Below, piece after piece: positions 2,188-40,438 of a stretch of DNA of 40,933 nucleotides. How positions within the stretch are numbered: position 1 is the stretch's first letter; each line of letters starts with the position of its first letter. The DNA lies in UHGV virus genome UHGV-0179541; one strand, 5' to 3'. The notes under the pieces were generated by a model, which ran no database searches, was not told the origin of the DNA, and was given only the letters and a program-made list of their open reading frames with translations. Position numbers and translations under genes: made by a program. This DNA is from a virus.

Positions 2188-4077
2188 ATGAAATCCGAAA
2201 CGCTAACCATCCAGCAAATTTTCCAAAATCAACGACAATATCGTGTTCCATTCTATCAACGTGCCTACGTATGGACGCAACGAAACCAATGGTCAGCTTT
2301 GTTGGAGGATATCTTCGAAAAAGCACAGAGCCGACTTTCGGGAACAAAACCAACCCCTCATTTCCTCGGCGCGGTGGTGCTGGAACCTCAACTCAAAAAC
2401 AGCTTGTTAGGTGTAGATACCATACATATTATTGACGGCCAGCAACGTTTAACCACTCTTCAATATATTCTGGCATCCATTCGATTATCATTGCGTGCTA
2501 CAGGCCTTTCTGAACTGGAAGGGTTAGTATTGACTTGCTTGAAAAATACAAACGAAGCAACGATGAGAAATAAAAAGGTAGAATGCTTCAAACTGTGGCC
2601 AACTTTTCGAGATCAAACTCATTTTATTCAAAGTCTTAATGTTGATAATATTGACGATCTCCGTAATGTATTTTCTGATAGCTTCACGCAACATGGTACG
2701 TTACGTAAACATTTCAACCACCCGCCGTCACTAGAGGCATTATGGTTTTTTACTGAAGCCTTTATAAAATGGATTAAAATAGAAAAACACTCACCACAAG
2801 AAAATGCTGTAGCACTAATTGAGGCTGTCTTGACGGATCTGAAACTGGTAAGCATATTTCTCGAAGCTGAAGATGATGCCCAAATAATTTTTGAAACATT
2901 AAATGGGCGAGGAGCGGAACTTCATGCAACGGATCTTATTCGCAACTATATCTTTATGTGCGCTGAGCATGAAAATATTAATGCTATTGAATTATATGAA
3001 AATGAGTGGAAGATCTTTGAAGATAAATACTGGTCGGAAAAGCAACGCCGTGGACGTATTAATAAACCACGCATGGAGTGGCTTGTACATGCGACATTGC
3101 AATCAGAAAGGCAGCGTGAAATTGATCTGTCTCGCCTTTACAATGAGTATCGTGATTATGTAAGTAAGGACTTGCCTTCACAACGAGCAGATCTGCAAGT
3201 AAAGCGCCTCAAACAATATGCATCACAATATAAAGAATTGGTTGGTGGTTTTGGCACAACCCCCATCTCACACTTTAGACATCGCATCGCAGCCTATGAT
3301 GTGACGACACTCTATCCGCTTGCTTTGTTCATTTCGATAGCTAACATCGCCGATGATGAGAAAGCAGCCATGTATAATGATCTTGTCTCCTACGTAGTAC
3401 GAAGATCCGTATGTGGCCTGACGCCAAAGAATTACAACAATGTATTTATGAATGTATTGCGACACTTGTCTAAAACGGAAATTTCCAGTGTTGAGTTACG
3501 TAATATCCTCAATAGCTTAAATGGCGAAGCCTCACGTTGGCCTGGGGACTCAGAATTTCTCAACGCTTGCATCAATGCTCCACTTTATCCTGGCAGGCTC
3601 GACGCACCGAAAATGCGCTCAATGTTAACGGAACTTGAAAGAGAACTTTGTCGCCAAGTGAAGACAGAAAAGCCTGATGTTCCAAATCTTTCTAATCTCG
3701 ATATCGATCATCTTATGCCTCAAAGTTGGTATTCCTGTTGGCCTCTCGAAAATGGTCATATGGTGACAAATTCAGATGCTACGGTAATGAACCAAATTGT
3801 TCTGTCTGGAACCGATCTTACCCCTGAACAGCTACTGGTAAGGAAACGGCAACAAGCGATAGCTACGTTGGGAAATCTAACTTTGCTTAACCTTAGCGTA
3901 AACCGTTCCGTTCAGAATGCTGTATTTCTGAAAAAACGTGATGCTCTCATCGTCCATACCAATCTACGACTGAACATACCACTTATACTTAAGGATAAAT
4001 GGGATGAGAGTGAAATACTGGAGCGAGGTAAAAAGTTGGGGGAAATTGCATTGAAAGTATGGCCAAAATACGATTAA
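2188..4077 (+). CDS. DUF262/DUF1524 two-domain protein, GmrSD-family type IV (modification-dependent) restriction endonuclease-like
   Basis: N-terminal motifs VPFYQRAYVW and IIDGQQRLTTL (DUF262 / ParB-like signature DGQQR); C-terminal DIDHLMPQS region consistent with the DUF1524 His-Me finger; AT-richer than phage core. Confidence 0.75.
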   Translation: MKSETLTIQQIFQNQRQYRVPFYQRAYVWTQRNQWSALLEDIFEKAQSRLSGTKPTPHFLGAVVLEPQLKNSLLGVDTIHIIDGQQRLTTLQYILASIRLSLRATGLSELEGLVLTCLKNTNEATMRNKKVECFKLWPTFRDQTHFIQSLNVDNIDDLRNVFSDSFTQHGTLRKHFNHPPSLEALWFFTEAFIKWIKIEKHSPQENAVALIEAVLTDLKLVSIFLEAEDDAQIIFETLNGRGAELHATDLIRNYIFMCAEHENINAIELYENEWKIFEDKYWSEKQRRGRINKPRMEWLVHATLQSERQREIDLSRLYNEYRDYVSKDLPSQRADLQVKRLKQYASQYKELVGGFGTTPISHFRHRIAAYDVTTLYPLALFISIANIADDEKAAMYNDLVSYVVRRSVCGLTPKNYNNVFMNVLRHLSKTEISSVELRNILNSLNGEASRWPGDSEFLNACINAPLYPGRLDAPKMRSMLTELERELCRQVKTEKPDVPNLSNLDIDHLMPQSWYSCWPLENGHMVTNSDATVMNQIVLSGTDLTPEQLLVRKRQQAIATLGNLTLLNLSVNRSVQNAVFLKKRDALIVHTNLRLNIPLILKDKWDESEILERGKKLGEIALKVWPKYD

Positions 4078-4123: not shown

Positions 4124-4338
4124 AACTCACTATTAAATCCTTTAATTTGCATCAAGAACAGCACTGTCAGCCCTAGGCTCTCGGACTTTGTACCGCTTAT
4201 CTTGTCTTCAAAAATCAGCTCGCATCCTGCACAGTTAAACGCATTACGTTGTAGATCGATTTTCTGGTCATTTGTTGATACGCAAACATAGCCAATAAGC
4301 ATGGTAGCTCCCTCTGACAAAAGCAGGAATGATGCCAT
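4111..4338 (-). pseudogene. Truncated serine DNA invertase (Pin/Gin/Hin family), N-terminal 75 codons only
   Basis: MLIGYVCVSTNDQKIDLQRNAFNCAGCELIFEDKISGT matches the invertase N-terminus including the catalytic-serine region; frame ends after about 75 aa where a full invertase is about 190 aa. Confidence 0.75.
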
Positions 4339-4718
4339 TTTCTCGTTATTTCTGCATTTTCATAAACGTTGGTTTGGGAGAATTATCTCTGGCTGGCACT
4401 GCATCGGGTGTCATTGGTCTGAATGGGTATGTAACGATTCCGTTAATTATTTCAGGTTCCCGGAGAACACTGATTATTCAGTGGGGGCAGGCGAGATTTG
4501 GTGGGTCTGGTGGTGAAGATGCCGGATATCTTAATGATTTTCCTTTTGCCTTTCCGTCAGCATGTTATGGAATGATAGTTAGTCATGTGGGGCATACACC
4601 TTCAGGCGCAGGAATCCTGTCGGCTTCTGCAATTACATCAAATCAGTTCCGCGGTTTTTCAAGCATAGCGACTGCTGCAAATGCTGTATTAGGTCGTTAT
4701 ATCGCTATAGGGGGTTAA
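4329..4718 (+). CDS. Silent alternative tail-fibre C-terminal cassette (inverted orientation); ORF start not meaningful
   Basis: Shares the LIIQWG junction and 17-bp inverted repeat with the expressed tail-fibre gene; followed by its own Tfa gene. Confidence 0.5.
   Translation: MMPFSRYFCIFINVGLGELSLAGTASGVIGLNGYVTIPLIISGSRRTLIIQWGQARFGGSGGEDAGYLNDFPFAFPSACYGMIVSHVGHTPSGAGILSASAITSNQFRGFSSIATAANAVLGRYIAIGG
4470..4486. repeat. Left inverted repeat CTGATTATTCAGTGGGG of the tail-fibre inversion segment
   Basis: Exact reverse complement of 5768..5784. Confidence 0.8.
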
Positions 4719-4719
4719 T

Positions 4720-5157
4720 ATGTTTTATAGTCCATCATTAAACATTTTTGTGAATCCTGCGCTTAAGGATGATTACATTAATGCAAATTCATGGCCAGAT
4801 GATGCTCTGGCTGTCAGTGATGATGTTTATAATGAATTTGCAATCAATACGCCCCCATATGACAAAATTCGTGTTGCAGGAAAAAATGGATTACCCACAT
4901 GGGCACTAATACCTCCACCATCGCATGAAGAACTTATTCAACAGGCAGAATCAGAAAGGCAATTATTGCTTAATCAGGCCAACGAATACATGAACAGTAA
5001 ACAATGGCCCGGTAAAGCCGCTATTGGTCGTCTGAAAGACGAGGAACTGGCACTATATAATTTGTGGCTGGATTACCTGGACGCACTGGAACTGGTGGAT
5101 ACCTCCAGTGCTCCAGATATTGAATGGCCTACACCTCCGGTAACTCAGGCCAGCTAA
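4720..5157 (+). CDS. Tail fibre assembly protein (alternative cassette)
   Basis: 145 aa, Tfa-like C-terminus (DIEWPTPP), convergent with a second Tfa gene. Confidence 0.7.
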   Translation: MFYSPSLNIFVNPALKDDYINANSWPDDALAVSDDVYNEFAINTPPYDKIRVAGKNGLPTWALIPPPSHEELIQQAESERQLLLNQANEYMNSKQWPGKAAIGRLKDEELALYNLWLDYLDALELVDTSSAPDIEWPTPPVTQAS

Positions 5158-5554
5158 TCTCAGGAGCCGTCGAAGTGTCGACGGCTTTTACTTCTTTTTT
5201 GTAGTCCATCCAGGCGGATAGTTTTTCTTTATCTGTACTGCTGATATCACCAAGCATTAATTCCACTCGCCAGTCAGCTGTGACATTATCGGCATGAGCA
5301 AGTAACTGCATTCGCTGATTTTCAGCACGTGCGACATAATCAATCGCCGGAGATTTCAGTACCGGTAAACCATTTTCATCTGACGTGATTAATTTACCCC
5401 CTTCCTGCTGTCCGGCAATTAATTCATTGTATAAGTCTGTACTTATCTCAACAATGTCAGCAGGCATGTCGCTGTTTATACCATCAAAGAAAAAACCATT
5501 AGTCGATTTTGAGAAATAAATCATAGATATACCTATACACCGATTGCTACCCAA
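5129..5554 (-). CDS. Tail fibre assembly protein (expressed cassette)
   Basis: 141 aa, Tfa-like (EISWPELP), immediately downstream of the tail-fibre gene. Confidence 0.7.
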
Positions 5555-6189
5555 AAACAGGACCTTTCATATTTGACAATTTCTCCCTGAGATATACCGC
5601 CAACAATTATATAGAACTGTGATTTGGTGATATCAGAACAGTTCGCAATGCCCATTGCAGATATACCAGCCAACGACGTTGTATGTGGCACAGCCAACAG
5701 CGCAAGTGAACGATTTGGGAATGTTACCGGGTAAGTCACCGTATAGTTTGATGCTCCACTGACAATACCCCACTGAATAATCAGACCTGAAGGGAGTTTT
5801 TGAAAACCCGTTGATGAAAGTGAACTGGCAAACGCCGCCATATCCGGAATTTGGTTTTGCCCGTTACCTACATTCCGTTTTGCCGCTTCTCCCAAACCAA
5901 GGTTTTGAAGAGCCGTTTTCACCGTGCCGTCCGATTTGATATCGCCAAACGGATTTTTGCGACTTAACAGCAGCGCACGAAGCGCGGTAAGCAGCTGGTC
6001 ATGCCGCCCCTTCTCCAGGCTGGCACCGGATGCCTCCACCACGCTGCAGAGCTCTTCCTGCAACATGTCAAAGTAGTCATCATCCAGATCGGTGGCAGGC
6101 GTGCCGGTCTGGGGGTTACCACGGGTAAAACCGTTCTTACCCGCGCCGAACTTATCCTTCTGCGCGGTTTTCGTGTCTATACGATGCAT
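5533..6189 (-). CDS. Tail fibre protein (short, e14 Stf-like)
   Basis: 218 aa following the baseplate genes; C-terminal half begins at the inverted repeat. Confidence 0.65.
5768..5784. repeat. Right inverted repeat of the tail-fibre inversion segment (inside the tail-fibre gene)
   Basis: CCCCACTGAATAATCAG, reverse complement of 4470..4486; encodes LIIQWG in the tail-fibre frame. Confidence 0.8.
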
Positions 6190-22549: not shown

Positions 22550-23049
22550 GATTCGATAATTTTCAGAAACGGGTTAGTGGCTTTCTTCTGCCCCGCCAGG
22601 CCAATCAGACGCTGGCGGCTGCTGGGGTCGAGTCCGAGCATTGCCCCCGTACTGCTCATCTCGGACTCCTGTTCTTTTTTGGCGGTCAGCTCCGGATTTT
22701 TGACCATGCCGCCCATTGCACCGGTGATGGTGTTGCCCTGTCTGGCAATATTTTTCACAGCACGTCGCCAGAACTCATAGGCCACGCACCACCGCTCAAG
22801 CACTGCGAGGTCAGTCACGCACAGCAGGCCCTGACCGCAGAGTTCTTTGGTTGTCAGTTGCCACATGATCGTGGCGAGAGGGAGCTCTTCTTCAGCGAAC
22901 CACTCCGGTGGCTCAACACCTTTGATGGGCGTAAAAACAGGTTCATCTTTATTCAGGGCTCGCTTGCCGGGGTTTCCGGCCAGCGCCTTGCGCGCCGTTG
23001 GCTTGGGGCGACGCCCGGAACGCCCCGCCGTTCCAGCCATATGCGGCAC
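22546..23049 (-). CDS. Terminase small subunit
   Basis: 167 aa, overlaps the large subunit start. Confidence 0.7.
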
Positions 23050-23166
23050 TCCTGGTTAAATTTCATTTTTCGCGGGTATAAAAAAACGATGGGGCGGGCA
23101 GTCCGGAAGGCGCGCGGTTGCAAAGATTCGACCTCCCCCTCCCCTGGCTGATGATGACATCAATTC

Positions 23167-23517
23167 TCACCTGAACCGCTCACGCGCGGTCTTCACTGCG
23201 TGACACGACCAGCACAGACTCTCAAGGTTGCTGTCTTCATCAGTGCCGCCGTGAGCCTTCGCCTTGAGGTGGTCCACGCAGGACGCTTGCTTCACAACTC
23301 CCTGCCGAAGATGGTTCTGACATAACCCTTTGTCGCGCTTTAGTATCCGCTCCCGGATGACTTCCCACTTTGTTCCATATCCGCGCTGCTGCCGTGATTG
23401 ACCTGGCTTGTAGGATTTCCAGCCCTCACCTTTATGATTTTCGCAGTAGCCTGACGGATCTGTAGTGGTAGAACGGCAGCCGCGAACACGGCAGGCTTTT
23501 GGGATTCGTGGCGGCAT
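23167..23517 (-). CDS. HNH endonuclease (terminase-associated)
   Basis: 116 aa with Cys/His clusters (CxxC...HxxxH) upstream of the terminase genes. Confidence 0.7.
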   Translation of the reverse strand: MPPRIPKACRVRGCRSTTTDPSGYCENHKGEGWKSYKPGQSRQQRGYGTKWEVIRERILKRDKGLCQNHLRQGVVKQASCVDHLKAKAHGGTDEDSNLESLCWSCHAVKTARERFR

Positions 23518-23588
23518 ATGGAAAACTCCGGATAGAAATTATGATAGAAACCATGTTATTTAATAGCGTTTCAATCCGTTAAGTAACA

Positions 23589-24005
23589 ATGGTTATGCTC
23601 GTAAAGGACGCCCTGATGACAAATAACTACATGAATGATTTCCTCAAATACTCACAGCCATATGTTCCAAAGGACTACAATCTTGCAAATGAATTTCATA
23701 GACGCCTTATATGCTGGATAAATGATTTTCACCGTGAACTTGAAGAAGAGTATGAGGTAGGAGGACAACTAGCTAGCTTTGGTAAAAACATTGAATTTCA
23801 TTTCACAGACATAAGCTACTGGAATCCATCATTAATTTCTTTCATTGGTACTCTGGAGGATGGCAGTCCTGTAGAACTTGTTCAGCATGTATCTCAAATA
23901 AATGTCCTGCTAATCCGAAAAAAACGCTTATGCTTAGAGACCCCTAAAAGACCGATTGGGTTTGCTGATTGGGGTGAATACGACTCCTTTAAAGGAGATA
24001 ATTGA
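23589..24005 (+). CDS. Hypothetical protein, AT-rich opposite-strand moron
   Basis: 138 aa on the opposite strand to all neighbours, with its own downstream hairpin. Confidence 0.5.
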   Translation: MVMLVKDALMTNNYMNDFLKYSQPYVPKDYNLANEFHRRLICWINDFHRELEEEYEVGGQLASFGKNIEFHFTDISYWNPSLISFIGTLEDGSPVELVQHVSQINVLLIRKKRLCLETPKRPIGFADWGEYDSFKGDN

Positions 24006-24012
24006 TAACTTT

Positions 24013-24037
24013 ATTGCGGGCGATAATTGCCCGCAAT
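24013..24037 (+). terminator. Hairpin ATTGCGGGC-GATAATT-GCCCGCAAT after the moron gene
   Basis: Perfect 9-bp stem read directly. Confidence 0.55.
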
Positions 24038-24047
24038 CTCGTTTGCC

Positions 24048-24266
24048 TCATAACTGGCTAATACAGTTGCGCTGTACTGCTTTGTTATGTGCCAGAATAT
24101 CCCGCTTCGTAAGCTTATCCAGCACTTCAATGTCCTGACCTGTGAGGTAGATGATTCTTACCCAGTCACAGGCCGTGTCCGTTACTTCAGGTTTTGCGGG
24201 TAAAGTTTTCGCGCAACTCACGGTCAACATCGTCATCAGGTAGATGATTAACAGTCTGCTGTACAT
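24048..24266 (-). CDS. o-spanin (Rz1-like outer-membrane lipoprotein)
   Basis: 72 aa with lipobox LTVSC; partly overlaps the i-spanin gene. Confidence 0.6.
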   Translation of the reverse strand: MYSRLLIIYLMTMLTVSCAKTLPAKPEVTDTACDWVRIIYLTGQDIEVLDKLTKRDILAHNKAVQRNCISQL

Positions 24267-24456
24267 CCCAGGCTCCTTTTGTTGTCTCTACCCTACGTTC
24301 TGCAACGGCTTCAGTAGCAGCTGCACGTTCTTCAGTGCGTTGCTGGTCCGCTTTTGTTTCTGCGATACTTGTACCGCGTGATTTACCCAGACCAAAAGCA
24401 CCTGCAATTGCAGCCAGCACAGCAACAACCAGGCCGATAATCATTTCAAGTCCCAT
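24187..24456 (-). CDS. i-spanin (Rz-like)
   Basis: N-terminal TM helix then charged periplasmic domain; start refined to the internal ATG with a GAGG ribosome-binding site. Confidence 0.55.
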   Translation of the reverse strand: MGLEMIIGLVVAVLAAIAGAFGLGKSRGTSIAETKADQQRTEERAAATEAVAERRVETTKGAWDVQQTVNHLPDDDVDRELRENFTRKT

Positions 24457-24463
24457 AGTGACC

Positions 24464-25078
24464 TCATACCAGTGCGGCTTTTGCTTTGGCGTAACGTTCA
24501 CGGCGGTCTTTAATGCCATTCTGTCCGCCGTTAATAATCTGCGTTACACGTTCCACGTCACCCGAATACATCAAGCAACCGCGTAACGTGAAGTACCACG
24601 CCGCCGAACGGGCCGCATGTCGCTCCTGCGTTAGCAATTCTGGTGTACTGACAAGGTCAAGTTTCAGCGCCGCACCACATTTGGTGTAGTTCTCACGGCC
24701 AGTAATTTGAAGCAGGCCACGACCGCGATATTTCCAGCCGTCACCCTGGCTGTTATTCCCCATGCGGTCACCGTAAACCAGATTGGCTATTTGCGGCTGG
24801 TGAGCGACCTGTTTACCATCGACACGCCCCAGCATTTCGCACTGGTACGGCGTCAGACGCTTACCAAAGGTTTTCTTCAGCCCTTCAACCGAGTAGTTAA
24901 AACTCTCTGCCAGCGAAGTAAATCCTGCAGACTCATGCCCGACTTGTGCAATGAACATGGCCTGATCATTAACTGCTGTAATACCAAACTCTTTCATTGC
25001 CGCATCAATGTGCGGAAACCAGCGTGCAGAAACATCGGCGCTGATACCAGCCGCCTGCTGAAATTGTGATTGGTTCAT
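24464..25078 (-). CDS. Endolysin, glycoside hydrolase family 19 (chitinase-like) lysozyme
   Basis: 204 aa with YRGRGLLQITGRENY motif. Confidence 0.75.
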   Translation of the reverse strand: MNQSQFQQAAGISADVSARWFPHIDAAMKEFGITAVNDQAMFIAQVGHESAGFTSLAESFNYSVEGLKKTFGKRLTPYQCEMLGRVDGKQVAHQPQIANLVYGDRMGNNSQGDGWKYRGRGLLQITGRENYTKCGAALKLDLVSTPELLTQERHAARSAAWYFTLRGCLMYSGDVERVTQIINGGQNGIKDRRERYAKAKAALV

Positions 25079-25840: not shown

Positions 25841-26647
25841 CTATTTCTTAATGATGCTATTTAACATTTCTAATGCAAAAAGCAACATGGAGCTAATAAA
25901 ATACAATATAACCGCACTGGCAATCGCTCCAATTATAGCCTGGACACTCCAGTGAAAGTAATTTTTACCATTAATAACAAACTTAACACTAGGAAACAAA
26001 AAGTCGATAAGCTTAATTATTAATGGAATAGCAAAGCTCCATAAGTTCGAAAACAAAATAAAGATACAAATAAATGATAAAGCAAATGCACCATCGATTG
26101 ATAGTTTTGGCGCCAGTTTTGAGGCTGTCCATAAGCTAAGCAAAAAGCCAACTGTCACACCTGAAATCTGGATACTTAACATAGTCCAAGCTGTTCTAAA
26201 AAATCTAAATTTATTTTTGCACTTGTTAAGTAAATCCTGAATCGTAATCCATAACGAGTCAACCCACTCATTATCTTCCGATGCTACAATCATTGTGCTG
26301 CTATTTGAATTCCTCTCATCAATTCGTAGCTCCATCCAAGATCCATTCATCCTGTTAGACTGTCGACTTTGATAAGTTTCAATAGTAAAAATTATTTGAT
26401 CAATCCTAGTGGCCTGTCTAAAGTATTTCACAAGCTCACCGATAGAATCAACTTTATACCCCTTACCATCGAACAAAATAAAAAAAACACATTGAGCACA
26501 AACTTCCCTACTTTCCTTTTGAGCTTGCTCATTCATTTTAACGCAGCGTTCGACAATTGCCGTGCTTAAGCTAATCAAGCTATCTTCATTTATAGAAACA
26601 CCTGAAATATTCTTGCTTCTGTAAAAATATGACACTTTCGATTCCAC
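25841..26647 (-). CDS. AT-rich moron: protein with soluble N-terminal domain and C-terminal multi-helix membrane domain
   Basis: 268 aa; hydrophobic helices in the last ~110 residues; low GC versus flanking lysis and Q genes. Confidence 0.55.
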   Translation of the reverse strand: MESKVSYFYRSKNISGVSINEDSLISLSTAIVERCVKMNEQAQKESREVCAQCVFFILFDGKGYKVDSIGELVKYFRQATRIDQIIFTIETYQSRQSNRMNGSWMELRIDERNSNSSTMIVASEDNEWVDSLWITIQDLLNKCKNKFRFFRTAWTMLSIQISGVTVGFLLSLWTASKLAPKLSIDGAFALSFICIFILFSNLWSFAIPLIIKLIDFLFPSVKFVINGKNYFHWSVQAIIGAIASAVILYFISSMLLFALEMLNSIIKK

Positions 26648-26844
26648 TCCGCACCAGTCTCGATTTAGCGCAGGTTAACATAACCACTTCATTGGTAGAA
26701 GAAAAGAACTCTTCTTGTCAGAAAGCTACTGTGATATCCCTAAACCTGCAGATGATACAGAACAAAATTTAAGCATCAATTGTAGGCGATTTTAAATTCA
26801 CTTTACAGTTTAGGCTGCCAATTGGCAGCCGATTGAAGCAGAAA

Positions 26845-27114
26845 TCAATGAGTGCTCATCGATGAATTTTTTTCAGCGCCAATCTCACTCAAAAAAGCAA
26901 AACCTTTTGACGTTATCTCATTAGCAATCAATCCACCTTCGGCAGATTTGCTTCGTATAACATCGATAAAACCTATATCAGCAAGATCTGAAATAGCAAA
27001 GTTAACCTCTTTTGCTGAGAGATGAGGTAATGATGCAGCCTGAATTCTAGAATCCTTTGGCTGCAATTCATTCACTCGACGTAGTATTTCAAGATGGATA
27101 GAGGTCAGTTTCAT
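26845..27114 (-). CDS. AT-rich moron: small soluble protein, possibly DNA-binding
   Basis: 89 aa, strong ribosome-binding site (CAGGAG), first gene after the late terminator. Confidence 0.5.
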   Translation of the reverse strand: MKLTSIHLEILRRVNELQPKDSRIQAASLPHLSAKEVNFAISDLADIGFIDVIRSKSAEGGLIANEITSKGFAFLSEIGAEKNSSMSTH

Positions 27115-35680: not shown

Positions 35681-35926
35681 ATGCTTCAAATGTTAACTCT
35701 TGAAGAATGGGCTACTGAAAAATACAGAAGCAATCCTCCAAGCGTGTCCACATTGCGTCGTTATGCTAAGCAGAATTTATTTTGCCCACCGGCCATGAAA
35801 CAAGGTCGGTTATGGCGAGTGCGTGAGGACGCCGAATTAGTTGGGGAGTTGGTAACGCCAATAATTAAGAAAAATGACTCATTACTTTTGCAACGGATTT
35901 TGAGTGATGGCAGCCAGACCGCGTAA
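35681..35926 (+). CDS. xis: Excisionase-like protein
   Basis: 81 aa overlapping the integrase start, the usual xis position. Confidence 0.55.
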   Translation: MLQMLTLEEWATEKYRSNPPSVSTLRRYAKQNLFCPPAMKQGRLWRVREDAELVGELVTPIIKKNDSLLLQRILSDGSQTA

Positions 35927-37034
35927 GAATAATGTTTCAGTCCCTAACTTATATCCGCTTTATAGTAGGAAGGTAAATAAAGTCTATTGGCGGTATAAGC
36001 ATCCAGTAACAGGAAAATTCCATGCTTTGGGAACAAACGAAGCTGAAGCTATCGCTATTGCCACTGAGGCCAACACTCGCCTGGCTGAACAAAGAACCCG
36101 GCAGATTCTGGCTATCAGTGACAGGATCGCAACCAGCAAAGGAAAGGCTATCACAACGTCAACCTGGTTAGATCGCTATCAAGCGATCCAGGATGACAGG
36201 CTTAAAAGTGGTGATATAAGACTCAACACCTATAAGCAAAAAGCTAAACCAGTATCCTTGCTCAGAGAACGAGCAGGAATGAAGTTGATCTCAGCCGTTG
36301 ATGTAAGAGATATAGCACAATTGCTTGACGAGTATATCGCTGCCGGGCAGCCGAGAATGGCGCAAGTCGTAAGGTCTGTATTGATCGATGTATTTAAGGA
36401 AGCACAGCATTATGGCGAAGTTCCGCCAGGGTATAACCCTGCTCTTGCGACGAAGCAACCCAGACGGAAAATTACCCGTCAACGCCTCAGCCTGGAAGAA
36501 TGGCAAAAAATATTCGATATCGCAGACGCCACTCATCGTTATATGGGAAATGCCATGCTCCTAGCTTTGGTCACTGGGCAGCGTTTGGGAGATATATCCA
36601 AAATGAAATTTAGTGATATTTGGGAGGATCATCTTCACGTCATTCAGGAAAAGACTGGAAGCAAAATCGCTATCCCTCTTTCTCTACGTTTGAATGCTAT
36701 CAATTGGAGCCTACGAGATGTAGTAGCTCGCTGCCGTGACTACGCAGTGAGCCCATACTTGGTGCATTTTTTCCGTTCAACCTCACAAGCAGAACGTGGT
36801 GCACAGGTTAAATCCAATACATTGACGATGAATTTTAGTAAAGCAAGGGATTTAGCAGGGATTGACTGGGGGGATGGCTCACCTGCCACATTCCATGAAC
36901 AAAGGTCTTTATCTGAACGCCTGTACAAAGAACAGGGGTTAGATACGCAAAAATTACTTGGTCATAAAACACAACAGCAGACCGATCGTTACCATGATGA
37001 TCGAGGCAAAGGATGGAGCAAAGTAGCATTGTGA
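35904..37034 (+). CDS. int: Tyrosine integrase (phage integrase family, icd-specific e14 / phage-21 type)
   Basis: 376 aa; C-terminal catalytic region ending HKTQQQTDRYHDDRG; prophage sits in icd. Confidence 0.85.
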   Translation: MMAARPRKNNVSVPNLYPLYSRKVNKVYWRYKHPVTGKFHALGTNEAEAIAIATEANTRLAEQRTRQILAISDRIATSKGKAITTSTWLDRYQAIQDDRLKSGDIRLNTYKQKAKPVSLLRERAGMKLISAVDVRDIAQLLDEYIAAGQPRMAQVVRSVLIDVFKEAQHYGEVPPGYNPALATKQPRRKITRQRLSLEEWQKIFDIADATHRYMGNAMLLALVTGQRLGDISKMKFSDIWEDHLHVIQEKTGSKIAIPLSLRLNAINWSLRDVVARCRDYAVSPYLVHFFRSTSQAERGAQVKSNTLTMNFSKARDLAGIDWGDGSPATFHEQRSLSERLYKEQGLDTQKLLGHKTQQQTDRYHDDRGKGWSKVAL

Positions 37035-37390: not shown

Positions 37391-38350
37391 ATGGAAAGCT
37401 ATACTTTTGAATTGAAAGGAAATGTATTTGGCTTTTTTCAACGCAATGGTGAGGATTGTTTTTTATACATTAACACTGGTTTATTCCCTAAAGTAACCTA
37501 CTACCAATGGAGTCATTGGCAACGAGGAAAGGATAACTATAATGAAACATATCCTGATGCAATAAAAACAGATGAAATAGCAAAGGCGATTGGTTATTTT
37601 TCTTGGAATCAATGCTTTGATCGTTGTCCATACCAACCTATAGTTATCAGTTTATCTAAAAAAACAGAAGCAGGAATATTCTACCCTAGAATGAATAGAG
37701 GAGAACCAAAACTATATAACCAACAAATAGCGGAGGCACGAATCCTTGATGAAGTAAGGTCTTTTAATAATATATGTGATTCATTAAATGAATTATTTAA
37801 CTATATAGATCCTGATACTGGTAATTTGAGTTGTTTTGGTAATAAAATCAGAGAAATATTAATTATTGCATGTACTGAGGTTGAATACTTACTTCACAAT
37901 TTTCTTACAGATAATGGTTACACTGTTAACAACAATAGATTTAGTACTAACGATTATGTTAAATCTCTTGGTTTGCTGAAATTAGATGGGTATTCTACGA
38001 GGCTCGTTTACTATCCATATTTGCAAGAGTGGTGCCCATTTAGTGGTTGGGATGAATCTAAACCAACTACTAGTTTGACTTGGTATGACGCATATAATGC
38101 AGTTAAGCATAATCGCGGAACAAACAAGCAAAAGGCATCTCTTAACGCTGTAATAAATGCAGTAGCTGCCATTCATATTTTACTCGTAGCTCAATATGGG
38201 AGTGAGATATTTAATAGCCCGATGCACTCTAATTTCTCAAGCATTTTTAATACAACGAAATATCCTTCTTTCTTAGCAAATGATCTTCAGTGCCCAACAA
38301 TGAATCATGATCAAATCCTATGGGATAAAAAGTCATATTTATTTTCATAA
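37391..38350 (+). CDS. Hypothetical cargo protein, 319 aa, Trp/Tyr/Cys-rich, AT-rich (candidate single-gene defence or Abi protein)
   Basis: Strong ribosome-binding site (AAAGGAAACAAT ATG); AT-rich by eye; between int and the att site; no family recognised. Confidence 0.55.
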   Translation: MESYTFELKGNVFGFFQRNGEDCFLYINTGLFPKVTYYQWSHWQRGKDNYNETYPDAIKTDEIAKAIGYFSWNQCFDRCPYQPIVISLSKKTEAGIFYPRMNRGEPKLYNQQIAEARILDEVRSFNNICDSLNELFNYIDPDTGNLSCFGNKIREILIIACTEVEYLLHNFLTDNGYTVNNNRFSTNDYVKSLGLLKLDGYSTRLVYYPYLQEWCPFSGWDESKPTTSLTWYDAYNAVKHNRGTNKQKASLNAVINAVAAIHILLVAQYGSEIFNSPMHSNFSSIFNTTKYPSFLANDLQCPTMNHDQILWDKKSYLFS

Positions 38351-38513: not shown

Positions 38514-39533
38514 TCAATTATTTTTTTTATCAATTATATGACCACTGTTAGTGCCATAATACTTACCAGAAGCAACACCTTGCTTATAAAAATCATTCAA
38601 TACTTTTATTAGCAATCGTGCATCTGATGCATCTTTTATTACTAGCCTACCATTTTTTTCCTCTAACTTAGCACCTTCGAATATATTTAACGTTTCTTGA
38701 TATTTTATTATTATGTCAGGACTTAAATTTTCGTGGTTCTTTTTTTGAGCTATGCTCGCAATAGTTCGCTGAAGTGTTTTATTAGTTAAAATAACCTCTT
38801 CCAGAATTTTTATATTATCTATAATAGAAGCATCAGAAATAACCTTTAACACACTTCTTGCATTTTCCACAAATTCTTTTTCGATCCCGATAATTTGTTC
38901 AAACCCCAATTTCGATACAATATAAATCTTGTTATTTTTAAAGATAAAATCTATTTTTTTGTCAAAACTCACTGTCTGCATCGGAACGACTTTCATTGTA
39001 GCACTATTAACATCAAAGATAGCCTGCATTTTTTGAAAGGTATTCAATGGAGTATCTGTTGCCACCTTAGATTTTGTTAGCTTCCTATAAATGGTAAAAC
39101 CATCATCTTGTGTAGATATTTTTAAACAAAAAGCCAATATATCAGACTTAACTTCCTCTAGACTCTTTAATATATTTATTCCTGAGCCTTTATTTATTTT
39201 TTCTAATACTTTCCTGAATTCAAGGTCTTCAATATTTGCATAACCATAAATAGCGTCAGTCCCATCATCAGAAATCACTGAGTAGTCATGATACTCTAAT
39301 TCGTTGTTGCCTACCATTTTGTTTAATGTATCCAATGACCCAGTTTTAAAAAAATCCACCATTTTTTTGTCAAGACTCACCTTATAGATATCAAATATAA
39401 ATCTGTTTTCTGATGAGACTGAAGAATCTTTATTAATTTTCTTTGTTATCAAATAACATTTCATCGAAAATGTATTCGAGTGATAAAGATTCATTAGTGA
39501 ATTTAAAATACCTTTAATGTCTATTTCCGTCAT
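38514..39533 (-). CDS. Soluble 339-aa cargo protein, second gene of the two-gene operon (Kiwa KwaB-like by layout only)
   Basis: Start ATG overlaps the upstream stop (TAATG); Lys/Asn/Ile-rich, no TM segment; very AT-rich. Confidence 0.55.
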   Translation of the reverse strand: MTEIDIKGILNSLMNLYHSNTFSMKCYLITKKINKDSSVSSENRFIFDIYKVSLDKKMVDFFKTGSLDTLNKMVGNNELEYHDYSVISDDGTDAIYGYANIEDLEFRKVLEKINKGSGINILKSLEEVKSDILAFCLKISTQDDGFTIYRKLTKSKVATDTPLNTFQKMQAIFDVNSATMKVVPMQTVSFDKKIDFIFKNNKIYIVSKLGFEQIIGIEKEFVENARSVLKVISDASIIDNIKILEEVILTNKTLQRTIASIAQKKNHENLSPDIIIKYQETLNIFEGAKLEEKNGRLVIKDASDARLLIKVLNDFYKQGVASGKYYGTNSGHIIDKKNN

Positions 39534-40153
39534 TATTCTAATTCCTGATATTTAGCATAGAAGAGTTTGTAACCAATCTTTTGAATTTTGATACTGTCAT
39601 CTTCGTCCAAATATTTATTCGAACAAATTATCATTCCTTTCTTTTTTTGGCCGCCACTATTTATATACTCAATGCTGTAAAGTGAGTACTTTATAGCTAA
39701 AGTTGGATTTATAAGAATCATTGATGAGTTAGAATAAATAAGAAATGTAACCAGTAGCAGAATAGCTAAAGAAAATACACTCATGGGGTCAGAAAGATCT
39801 TGAAAAAGAAATGGCAGAAGATATGTAAAAAGATAACTTATAGATTCACTGTTTTTATTTTCTATGTCGACTATTTTTACAAAATCCCCATCATTATCAA
39901 TGCGTCTTTCCATATTTGATAATAAGAATATTAAACCAACAATACCAAAAACGACAAGAAGAAATATAATCGTAACCGCACCAAAATTTTCAATGTATAA
40001 TATTAATGCCTTCTTGTTCACCCCCCCCCAGTTGAGGTAATCTTTTTTCTTGTATAGTTGATTTACGGTCATAATTAAAAACAAAGGCATGTAAGACACC
40101 AAAAATAGTGTCAACCTTGCTCCTATTTTTAACTCTTCTTTTCGTGATGACAT
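39533..40153 (-). CDS. Four-helix membrane protein, first gene of the two-gene operon (Kiwa KwaA-like by layout only)
   Basis: Hydrophobic helices at roughly aa 20-37, 63-86, 111-125 and 131-148 of the track ORF; probable ATG start at 40153 after GAGG; contains the G9 tract. Confidence 0.55.
   Translation of the reverse strand: MSSRKEELKIGARLTLFLVSYMPLFLIMTVNQLYKKKDYLNWGGVNKKALILYIENFGAVTIIFLLVVFGIVGLIFLLSNMERRIDNDGDFVKIVDIENKNSESISYLFTYLLPFLFQDLSDPMSVFSLAILLLVTFLIYSNSSMILINPTLAIKYSLYSIEYINSGGQKKKGMIICSNKYLDEDDSIKIQKIGYKLFYAKYQELE
40021..40029. repeat. Homopolymer tract, 9 C on plus strand (G9 in the membrane-protein coding strand)
   Basis: Read directly; encodes WGGV. Confidence 0.9.
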
Positions 40154-40438
40154 AGTTCCAAAACCTCGAATCAACGCTTTCTTAGGTACTGATAACTGTA
40201 CCTAGTTTAACCTATAATATCTATGCAACATATTGATATATTGGTTAAAATTCCTTCTTTGATATCCCCTTACTTTCCCATTGATCAGTATGAAAAAACG
40301 TGAGCAATGTCCGTTATTGGCACTGAACGGACCTAAATATTAACGAGCATCCACCTGAAATGATCATAAAAAACTGAGGTATGCCTAATTGGAACTAGGT
40401 AATAGGGCTACCCTCTGAACATCCAAACTACTAGGGGG

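Follow-up and report, generated by a model that had tools for sequence, protein, structure and literature searches.

A single-gene moron between the lysis and packaging modules of an E. coli prophage encodes a DUF6173-family protein with a predicted Sm/SH3-like barrel

The segment 23518-24047 of the E. coli prophage analysed here is a horizontally acquired single-gene cargo cassette, or moron, that occupies a slot between the lysis cassette and the HNH/terminase module, and by its profile matches the protein it encodes is a bona fide member of the DUF6173 family. Our working hypothesis, to which we assign a probability of roughly 55%, is that this antisense moron is expressed in the lysogen and encodes a binding protein that would play a part in phage or mobile-element conflict. 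An antisense moron after the spanins is a textbook feature; the value of the present case lies in the cargo family, which evolves as slowly as core nucleic-acid-binding proteins and has entered prophages, a Tn3-type transposon, small plasmids and Vibrio integron cassettes in independent captures.

The window (the whole stretch of DNA that was analysed, 40,933 nucleotides) is a complete E. coli prophage at the e14 site, adjoining icd, with an HK97-type head, a Mu-like contractile tail, an HNH-terS(P27)-terL packaging module that begins with the HNH gene, a lysis cassette composed of two holins, a GH19 endolysin and Rz/Rz1, and an immunity region at 33.6-34.6 kb; the tested stretch is 100% identical to prophages of ~10 complete genomes. 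The initial annotation, made from the letters alone, described an AT-rich 138-aa gene at 23589 that lies between the HNH gene and the spanins and is the only plus-strand gene in a minus-strand operon of ~20 kb. The position holds (Table 1; spanin matches to phrog_1275 at 9.5e-29 and phrog_1026 at 6.5e-32), and so does the isolation on the plus strand, except that in the RefSeq annotation of an identical prophage the minus-strand block spans 28.7 kb, from a tail-fibre assembly gene (window 5129) to a Cro-like gene (window 33843). The AT-richness is equally clear: the GC content is 0.39 at 23600-23999, whereas the flanking DNA lies at about 0.55, with 0.51-0.59 towards the HNH and terminase genes and 0.48-0.53 towards the spanins and the endolysin. 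The 138-aa open frame (23589-24005) exists and is the longest possible one, but its start is probably not the one used. Because ATG 23616 is preceded at 7 nt by AAGGA (23604-23608), is the start chosen in RefSeq WP_000184049.1 and is the point at which the alignment with the closest homologue (P0002) begins, the gene likely starts there and encodes 129 aa plus stop; ATG 23589 has no Shine-Dalgarno sequence. On the minus strand, 23555-24047 contains no open reading frame of 40 aa or more.

Table 1 Features of the cargo slot and its borders (window coordinates).
Feature	Coordinates	Strand	Evidence or remark
HNH endonuclease, left slot border	23167-23517	-	phrog_144 at 1e-38, RefSeq annotation
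Divergent intergenic region and 5' leader of the cargo gene	23518-23615	+	Sequence, hexamer scan
DUF6173-family CDS	23616-24005	+	Pfam, RefSeq WP_000184049.1, alignment A1, AF2 model, dN
Palindromic hairpin	24013-24037	.	Between the convergent DUF6173 and Rz1 stop codons
Rz1-like o-spanin, right slot border	24048-24266 (RefSeq 24048-24230)	-	phrog match
Rz spanin	24187-24519	-	Rz1 embedded in and overlapping Rz

Comparison with related prophages delimits the cassette sharply, as 23518-24060 is exactly the part that is unlike them. In more than 1,000 E. coli genomes the HNH/terS side is ~82% identical, and this similarity extends only up to 23517-23520, i.e. the HNH start codon. The flanks are shared with strain M8, where they are 84-89% identical (92% by megablast); homology breaks at ~23469-23517 and resumes at 24061, and the interval contains two unrelated genes on the minus strand, of 187 aa and 76 aa. 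In phage SfII, the slot is filled by a 206-aa gene and IS911. Because related prophages hold other cargo in the same Rz1-HNH slot, the gene is a moron in the classical sense: it is absent at the same position in related phages and differs in base composition from the surrounding phage genes. The moron status proposed in the initial annotation is thus upheld by the alternative cargo in M8 and SfII, by the foreign GC content and by the finding, detailed below, that in viral contexts members of the family are usually isolated antisense genes.

The moron concept is said to go back to Juhala and Hendrix in 2000, and lambda bor, reportedly described by Barondess and Beckwith, is a classical moron that lies downstream of Rz/Rz1 and is expressed from the prophage. 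Under the same concept a moron would also bring its own promoter and terminator and be transcribed from the repressed prophage; our observations on these points are given below. The DUF6173 gene resembles bor in being a single small gene just after the spanins, antisense to the late operon and of foreign composition. Lambda Bor, however, belongs to the outer-membrane lipoproteins and has a signal peptide and a lipobox, whereas the DUF6173 protein has neither, nor any sequence similarity to Bor; its N-terminus (MTNNYMNDFLKYSQPYVPKDY) contains no hydrophobic stretch and no lipobox. Temperate phages are also known for cargo hotspots with defence genes, such as P2 old/tin/fun, the P4 hotspots and HK97 gp15. 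As in these hotspots, the slot is variable with differing cargo in related prophages, and the same prophage holds a Kiwa system and a type IV restriction enzyme in other slots; unlike the hotspot cargo, DUF6173 has no match to a defence model.

Within E. coli the cassette is rare and almost invariant. There are 33 carriers among 5,426 complete genomes, and in 32 of them the 530-bp cassette (23518-24047) is 100% identical. The initial annotation had named disruption of the frame in otherwise identical prophages as an observation that would count against the gene; it is seen in one carrier of the 33, strain TW14425 (L165 355-2970), in which an IS66-family element (ISCro1-like; tnpA, tnpB, transposase) is inserted in the DUF6173 gene at ~23742 and from which most of the stretch separating Rz1 from the early genes is missing as well, while the other 32 copies are intact. 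Strain E3 contains a prophage remnant in which a deletion joins tail-fibre fragments to a truncated HNH gene, such that the structural genes are lost and DUF6173 and the lysis cassette are intact. In about two-thirds of the carriers (APEC O78 and relatives; the number is an estimate), homology begins inside the HNH gene at ~23372-23378, which suggests that they hold the same remnant as E3. Because these remnants probably trace to one clonal event, they are only weak evidence of retention of the gene.

The initial annotation had found no recognisable motif in the protein, which our searches show to be wrong. The protein matches Pfam PF19670 (DUF6173) with 75.8 bits (cut-off 27) and an E-value of 3.8e-21, residues 40-125 aligning with positions 16-101 of the 102-position model; it also matches phrog_3306 at 2.4e-17, and the identical RefSeq entry WP_000184049.1 is already named 'DUF6173 family protein'. 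A profile search covering 1.84 billion representatives returned 1,488 clusters at 50% identity, 1,003 of them with E <=1e-10, and when a single genome of each species was scanned, proteins with 42-60% identity turned up in Firmicutes, Cyanobacteria, Acidobacteria, Planctomycetota, Bacteroidota, Desulfobacterota, Spirochaetes and other groups, with 45-60% for the first three of these phyla. For the core residues 31-125, dN is 0.10-0.13 with a saturated proportion of synonymous differences of 0.67-0.90, giving a dN/dS of at most about 0.07 relative to the closest non-E. coli relatives, on which this ratio rests, the E. coli copies being all identical. By this measure, purifying selection on the family is strong. 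The consensus of the conserved core is NLAxEFHRRLIxWINDFHRxL..E.EVGGQL.SFG...F.F.DI.YWNPSLISF.G...DGSPVELVQHVSQI..LL...KR.....PKRPIGF..W.EY, and the polar positions best preserved across 150 distant representatives are E56, Q99, H100 and Q103.

A scan of the protein with PADLOC 2.0 gave no family at E <=0.1, an NCBIfam scan gave no match, and a literature search found no paper on DUF6173, PF19670, WP_000184049 or phrog_3306, nor did we find a structure or a defence catalogue covering the family. A paper on Gifsy-prophage defence was set aside because its subject is an Avs2-like protein unrelated to DUF6173. Domain fusions are rare: two of the 150 best representatives (P0138 and P0139, the locus of one being L047) combine an XRE-type HTH_3 domain with a C-terminal DUF6173 domain. 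The other N-terminal extensions contain no Pfam domain, may be mis-called starts and were set aside.

The vehicles of the family are diverse. In Klebsiella lambdoid prophages, the order Rz(-), DUF6173(+), terS(-) places the gene at the same lysis-terS junction on other phage backbones, and in Proteus prophages, again at this junction and on other backbones, it lies 34 nt from a Terminase_2 terS; IMG/VR contigs have it next to several other terminase types. Elsewhere, it adjoins the integrase in convergent orientation in the Pseudoalteromonas P2-like phage C5a, stands alone on the opposite strand amid HTH regulators and an antirepressor in the immunity/early region of C. difficile phage phiCDKH02, where it is oriented like the ImmA/XRE genes, lies within the tail module of Clostridia phage contigs and is found beside the integrase of a Paenibacillus phage-plasmid. 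Outside phages, it occurs in a Tn3-type transposon context in marine Gammaproteobacteria, on small plasmids of A. baumannii and, in Vibrio (L176 3033-6996), as a cassette in an array of co-oriented small genes. Repeats of ~125 nt with attC/VCR-like sequence (...AAGAGGGATTC...CCCCTTAAC..GGCGTTAG) flank the Vibrio gene on both sides, and because such repeats lie between small co-oriented genes, this arrangement points to a chromosomal superintegron. As a separate observation, the Klebsiella prophages with DUF6173 contain a second lone antisense gene (L151 1046-1390), downstream of a Mu-F-like head gene, the product of which is of the Rap1a family (T6SS immunity-type).

Orientation differs between these settings. 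Of 40 non-redundant viral contexts, 20 have both neighbours on the opposite strand and four have both co-oriented; in cellular contigs, the corresponding counts are 15 and 29 of 66. Among cultured phages, DUF6173 is found in three of 50,697 records, which represent two distinct phages, none evidently virulent; both look temperate (C5a with an integrase, phiCDKH02 with an ImmA/XRE/antirepressor region).

DUF6173 is an autonomous mobile single gene without an obligatory partner. Clustering of the neighbours at 147 loci by BLAST revealed no neighbour cluster shared beyond close relatives, and no Pfam or PADLOC family occurs in more than three of 129 non-redundant flanking proteins; we therefore rejected a toxin-antitoxin or other two-gene module, which would have a conserved adjacent partner. 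A pair of OLD-TOPRIM and DUF6173 genes was likewise dismissed, as all instances belong to one lineage with 97-100% identity and hence provide no independent evidence: in Methylophaga (L008 3952-5910) a 652-aa OLD-family nuclease (AAA_15 plus TOPRIM, AriA-like in PADLOC) lies directly before DUF6173, and in marine Gammaproteobacteria a 212-aa TOPRIM ORF (L156 5257-5895) that is 97-100% identical to only the C-terminal third of the 652-aa protein, and so is apparently a truncated copy of it, lies between TnpA of a Tn3-family transposase gene and DUF6173. Overlaps with the upstream gene at three loci (L022, L048 and L065) are probably longest-ORF artefacts of gene calling rather than translational coupling.

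Several chromosomal copies lie among defence genes. One is found directly after a SMODS and S_4TM pair (CBASS-like), one is convergent with PycC and PycTM (Pycsar), one follows an OLD-family nuclease and another a SLATT_5 protein, and others adjoin SIR2 and type I or type IIG restriction-modification genes; still others lie beside housekeeping genes such as RecJ, PtsI and IlvD. Overall, the association with defence genes is ~2- to 4-fold by a rough count against a background assumed from general knowledge and without statistics.

To obtain a view of the fold, we used AlphaFold2 with a 32-sequence alignment as input and modelled the monomer only (pLDDT 82, pTM 0.70). In the numbering of the 138-aa frame, residues 1-30, which are variable in the family, are disordered and are followed by a 19-residue helix (32-50), five strands (55-63, 66-78, 82-88, 94-100 and 106-112), of which the fourth and fifth are connected by a 3-10 turn, and then by an extended segment that is conserved and a short helix at the C-terminus. 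The predicted fold, a small beta-barrel of the Sm/SH3-like type preceded by an N-terminal helix, has the Sm-type layout of such a helix and a strongly bent sheet of five strands. With a pI of 5.1 the protein is acidic; it is ~15 kDa and soluble, without a hydrophobic segment, and no recognisable catalytic domain is present in it. The homology and fold search proposed in the initial annotation delivered a family, but no relative of known function: a sequence-profile search of the PDB gave nothing below E 0.6, and Foldseek against BFVD and PDB gave no match at E <=0.001.

Membership in the Hfq/LSm and WYL families was considered and, by sequence, rejected. For Hfq, hhalign against an Hfq alignment gave a probability of 0.1%, and the protein has no Pfam LSM or Hfq match and no Sm1/Sm2-motif or profile similarity; unlike Hfq, LSm and archaeal SmAP proteins, it has a longer helix and is acidic, and it has in addition the conserved C-terminal segment PKRPIGF...W plus helix. 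For WYL, there is no Pfam match, no close structural match and no W-Y-L signature, and DUF6173 is mostly free-standing, unlike the fused WYL domains of DriD and CapW/BrxR. In the model, the patch formed by E56 and Q99-H100-x-x-Q103 sits at the position of the nucleotide-binding Sm2 motif of Hfq, which we regard as a lead.

With respect to expression, the gene is antisense to the Q-dependent late transcript, and because this is the only known transcription through the region, we infer that DUF6173 is transcribed as its own unit. A promoter scan found no site in 23518-23615, and our own hexamer scan found no convincing sigma-70 consensus; the best pair in the latter is TGGAAA (23519-23524) and TATGAT (23540-23545), with a 15-nt spacer and a poor -35. 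In several relatives only ~23-34 nt separate the gene from the divergent terS start, and any promoter there must therefore sit inside terS. Downstream of the gene, the initial annotation had seen a clean hairpin that would be the gene's own terminator. The hairpin is real and strong, with 11 pairs including one G-U, a 3-nt TAA loop, folding energies of -18.0 and -18.1 kcal/mol, and z-scores against shuffles of -3.9 (plus strand) and -4.5 (minus strand). However, it is followed on the plus strand by CUCGUUUGCC, a weak U tract without a U-run, and on the minus strand by AAAGUUAUC. Because there is no U-run and a terminator scan returned no sites and did not call this hairpin, we consider it terminator-like rather than a canonical intrinsic terminator. 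Many other prophage copies have a non-homologous hairpin after the DUF6173 stop codon, and a search of 23000-24600 against Rfam gave no match.

We suggest the following scheme for the cargo gene. As long as the late operon is silent, as in the lysogen, low-level transcription would most likely start in the weak AT-rich region upstream of the gene, and the hairpin would mark or stabilise the 3' end of the mRNA; antiterminated late transcription, which must cross the hairpin to reach the HNH and terminase genes, would not be stopped by it. Because antisense placement recurs in temperate elements and the gene is absent from evidently virulent phages, the protein is expected to be made while lytic genes are silent. 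Given the predicted barrel and the lack of a recognisable catalytic domain, it most likely works by binding and not by catalysis. The partner would be a conserved one, i.e. nucleic acid, a nucleotide-type ligand or a conserved protein, and the candidate binding patch consists of E56 and the turn that links strands 4 and 5 (Q99-H100-x-x-Q103). In view of the many kinds of vehicle and the partial association with defence islands, our best guess is a benefit in mobile-element or phage conflict, for example by protecting the lysogen or tuning defence. A role in virion production is unlikely. Several observations speak against this scheme: the acidic pI is not usual for a general nucleic-acid binder, many chromosomal copies lie beside housekeeping genes and one E. 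coli copy is IS-disrupted, PADLOC, NCBIfam and the Hfq profile comparison are negative, neither a convincing sigma-70 promoter nor a canonical terminator is present, and the enrichment of defence neighbours is modest. A bolder version, which we regard as doubtful, is that across more than ten bacterial phyla, on prophages, transposons, plasmids and integron cassettes, DUF6173 is a self-sufficient single-gene conflict module in which a hitherto unrecognised Sm-like barrel binds a nucleic-acid or nucleotide-type ligand. If so, the barrel would possibly form a ring and would shield its carrier from phages or disarm nucleotide-signalling defence.

Among other explanations, we consider it unlikely, if worth keeping in mind, that the protein acts in counter-defence as a small acidic inhibitor or 'sponge' against host immunity, expressed on entry or constitutively rather than in the lysogen specifically and working, e.g., by sequestration of a nucleotide signal or by blocking an effector. 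The small size and acidity of the protein agree with this idea, as do its presence in all the mobile-element classes that we looked at (phage, plasmid, transposon, integron) and its location beside cyclic-nucleotide systems at three of the loci described above (SMODS with S_4TM, PycC with PycTM, and SLATT_5). The sponge families Tad and Acb are broadly distributed and highly conserved, and DUF6173 shares this profile. Yet an inhibitor of this kind is hard to reconcile with the near absence from cultured phages and from any evidently virulent one among the 50,697 records, with a placement that is usually antisense to the lytic genes, and with stable chromosomal copies beside housekeeping genes that are kept between species (Kurthia, Pseudanabaena). 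Quite improbable, in our estimate, is a regulator or sensor of the lysogeny circuit, in which the barrel would be a ligand-sensing or oligomerisation domain modulating a repressor or antirepressor, as WYL does in HTH-WYL proteins. The two HTH_3-DUF6173 fusions and the setting and orientation of the phiCDKH02 gene are what such a role would lead one to expect, but fusions are confined to two of the 150 best representatives, the gene in the window is distant from the immunity region, integron cassettes, plasmids and transposons carry DUF6173 without a lysogeny switch, and Pfam reports no WYL match.

We rate slightly lower still the idea of an orphan immunity protein against a polymorphic toxin (T6SS, CDI or bacteriocin), acquired as a lysogenic-conversion gene. 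A small, acidic, cytoplasmic protein would suit this role; moreover, the copy on an A. baumannii plasmid follows a gene of the SMI1/KNR4 family, a common immunity family, and the second antisense moron of the Klebsiella prophages is Rap1a. Nevertheless, no gene with a toxin domain (Rhs, LXG, PAAR, CdiA) was seen adjoining any copy, Pfam gave no match to a known Imm family, and identity of 45-60% across phyla is atypical for immunity proteins. Finally, the frame could be a chance ORF or a decaying, functionless passenger, as the IS66-disrupted copy, the small number of E. coli carriers and the lack of a promoter consensus might suggest. We give this very little credence, and it is already contradicted by the conservation data, namely a Pfam match far above threshold, more than 1,000 clusters at E <=1e-10 and the low dN/dS, to which the confident AF2 fold prediction and the 32 intact identical copies add. 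A lysogen-expressed binding protein with a part in phage or mobile-element conflict remains the reading that we prefer. Because the family is broad, mobile, partner-free and conserved, it is an inexpensive and well-defined candidate to screen in phage-challenge, anti-defence or binding assays, and natural test material is available in E. coli with the intact prophage and in E. coli with the remnant that keeps only DUF6173 and the lysis cassette.

The prophage contains further regions that we record here as separate observations. A complete Kiwa system (38514-40174, minus strand) lies between the integrase gene (35904-37034) and the icd end of the prophage and consists of KwaB (38514-39533, PADLOC E 1.3e-121) and KwaA (39533-40174, E 2.3e-95); at the tail-fibre end, a plus-strand gene (2188-4077) encodes a 629-aa DUF262 protein with a full-length match (E 0) to the PADLOC model mREase_IV, a type IV methyl-directed restriction enzyme. 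By these positions, recognised defence cargo is present at both ends of the prophage. Between the integrase and Kiwa lies a plus-strand gene (37391-38350) for a 319-aa hypothetical protein without a PADLOC match. A second AT-rich block (25841-27114, minus strand, GC 0.33-0.38), which has the same orientation as the late operon and is situated between the holins and antiterminator Q, encodes a 268-aa protein (phrog_30208), the C-terminal half of which looks hydrophobic, and an 89-aa protein (phrog_32916) with a weak match to an Lrs14-type HTH (E 0.06); neither has a PADLOC match or a significant NCBIfam match, and the block is probably another moron pair. At 4159-6189, tail-fibre and tail-fibre-assembly genes are inverted and partly duplicated (4329-5157 on the plus strand versus 5129-6189 on the minus strand) and adjoin a truncated recombinase pseudogene (4159-4302), and this region looks like an invertible host-range region of the Mu G-segment type with a broken invertase.
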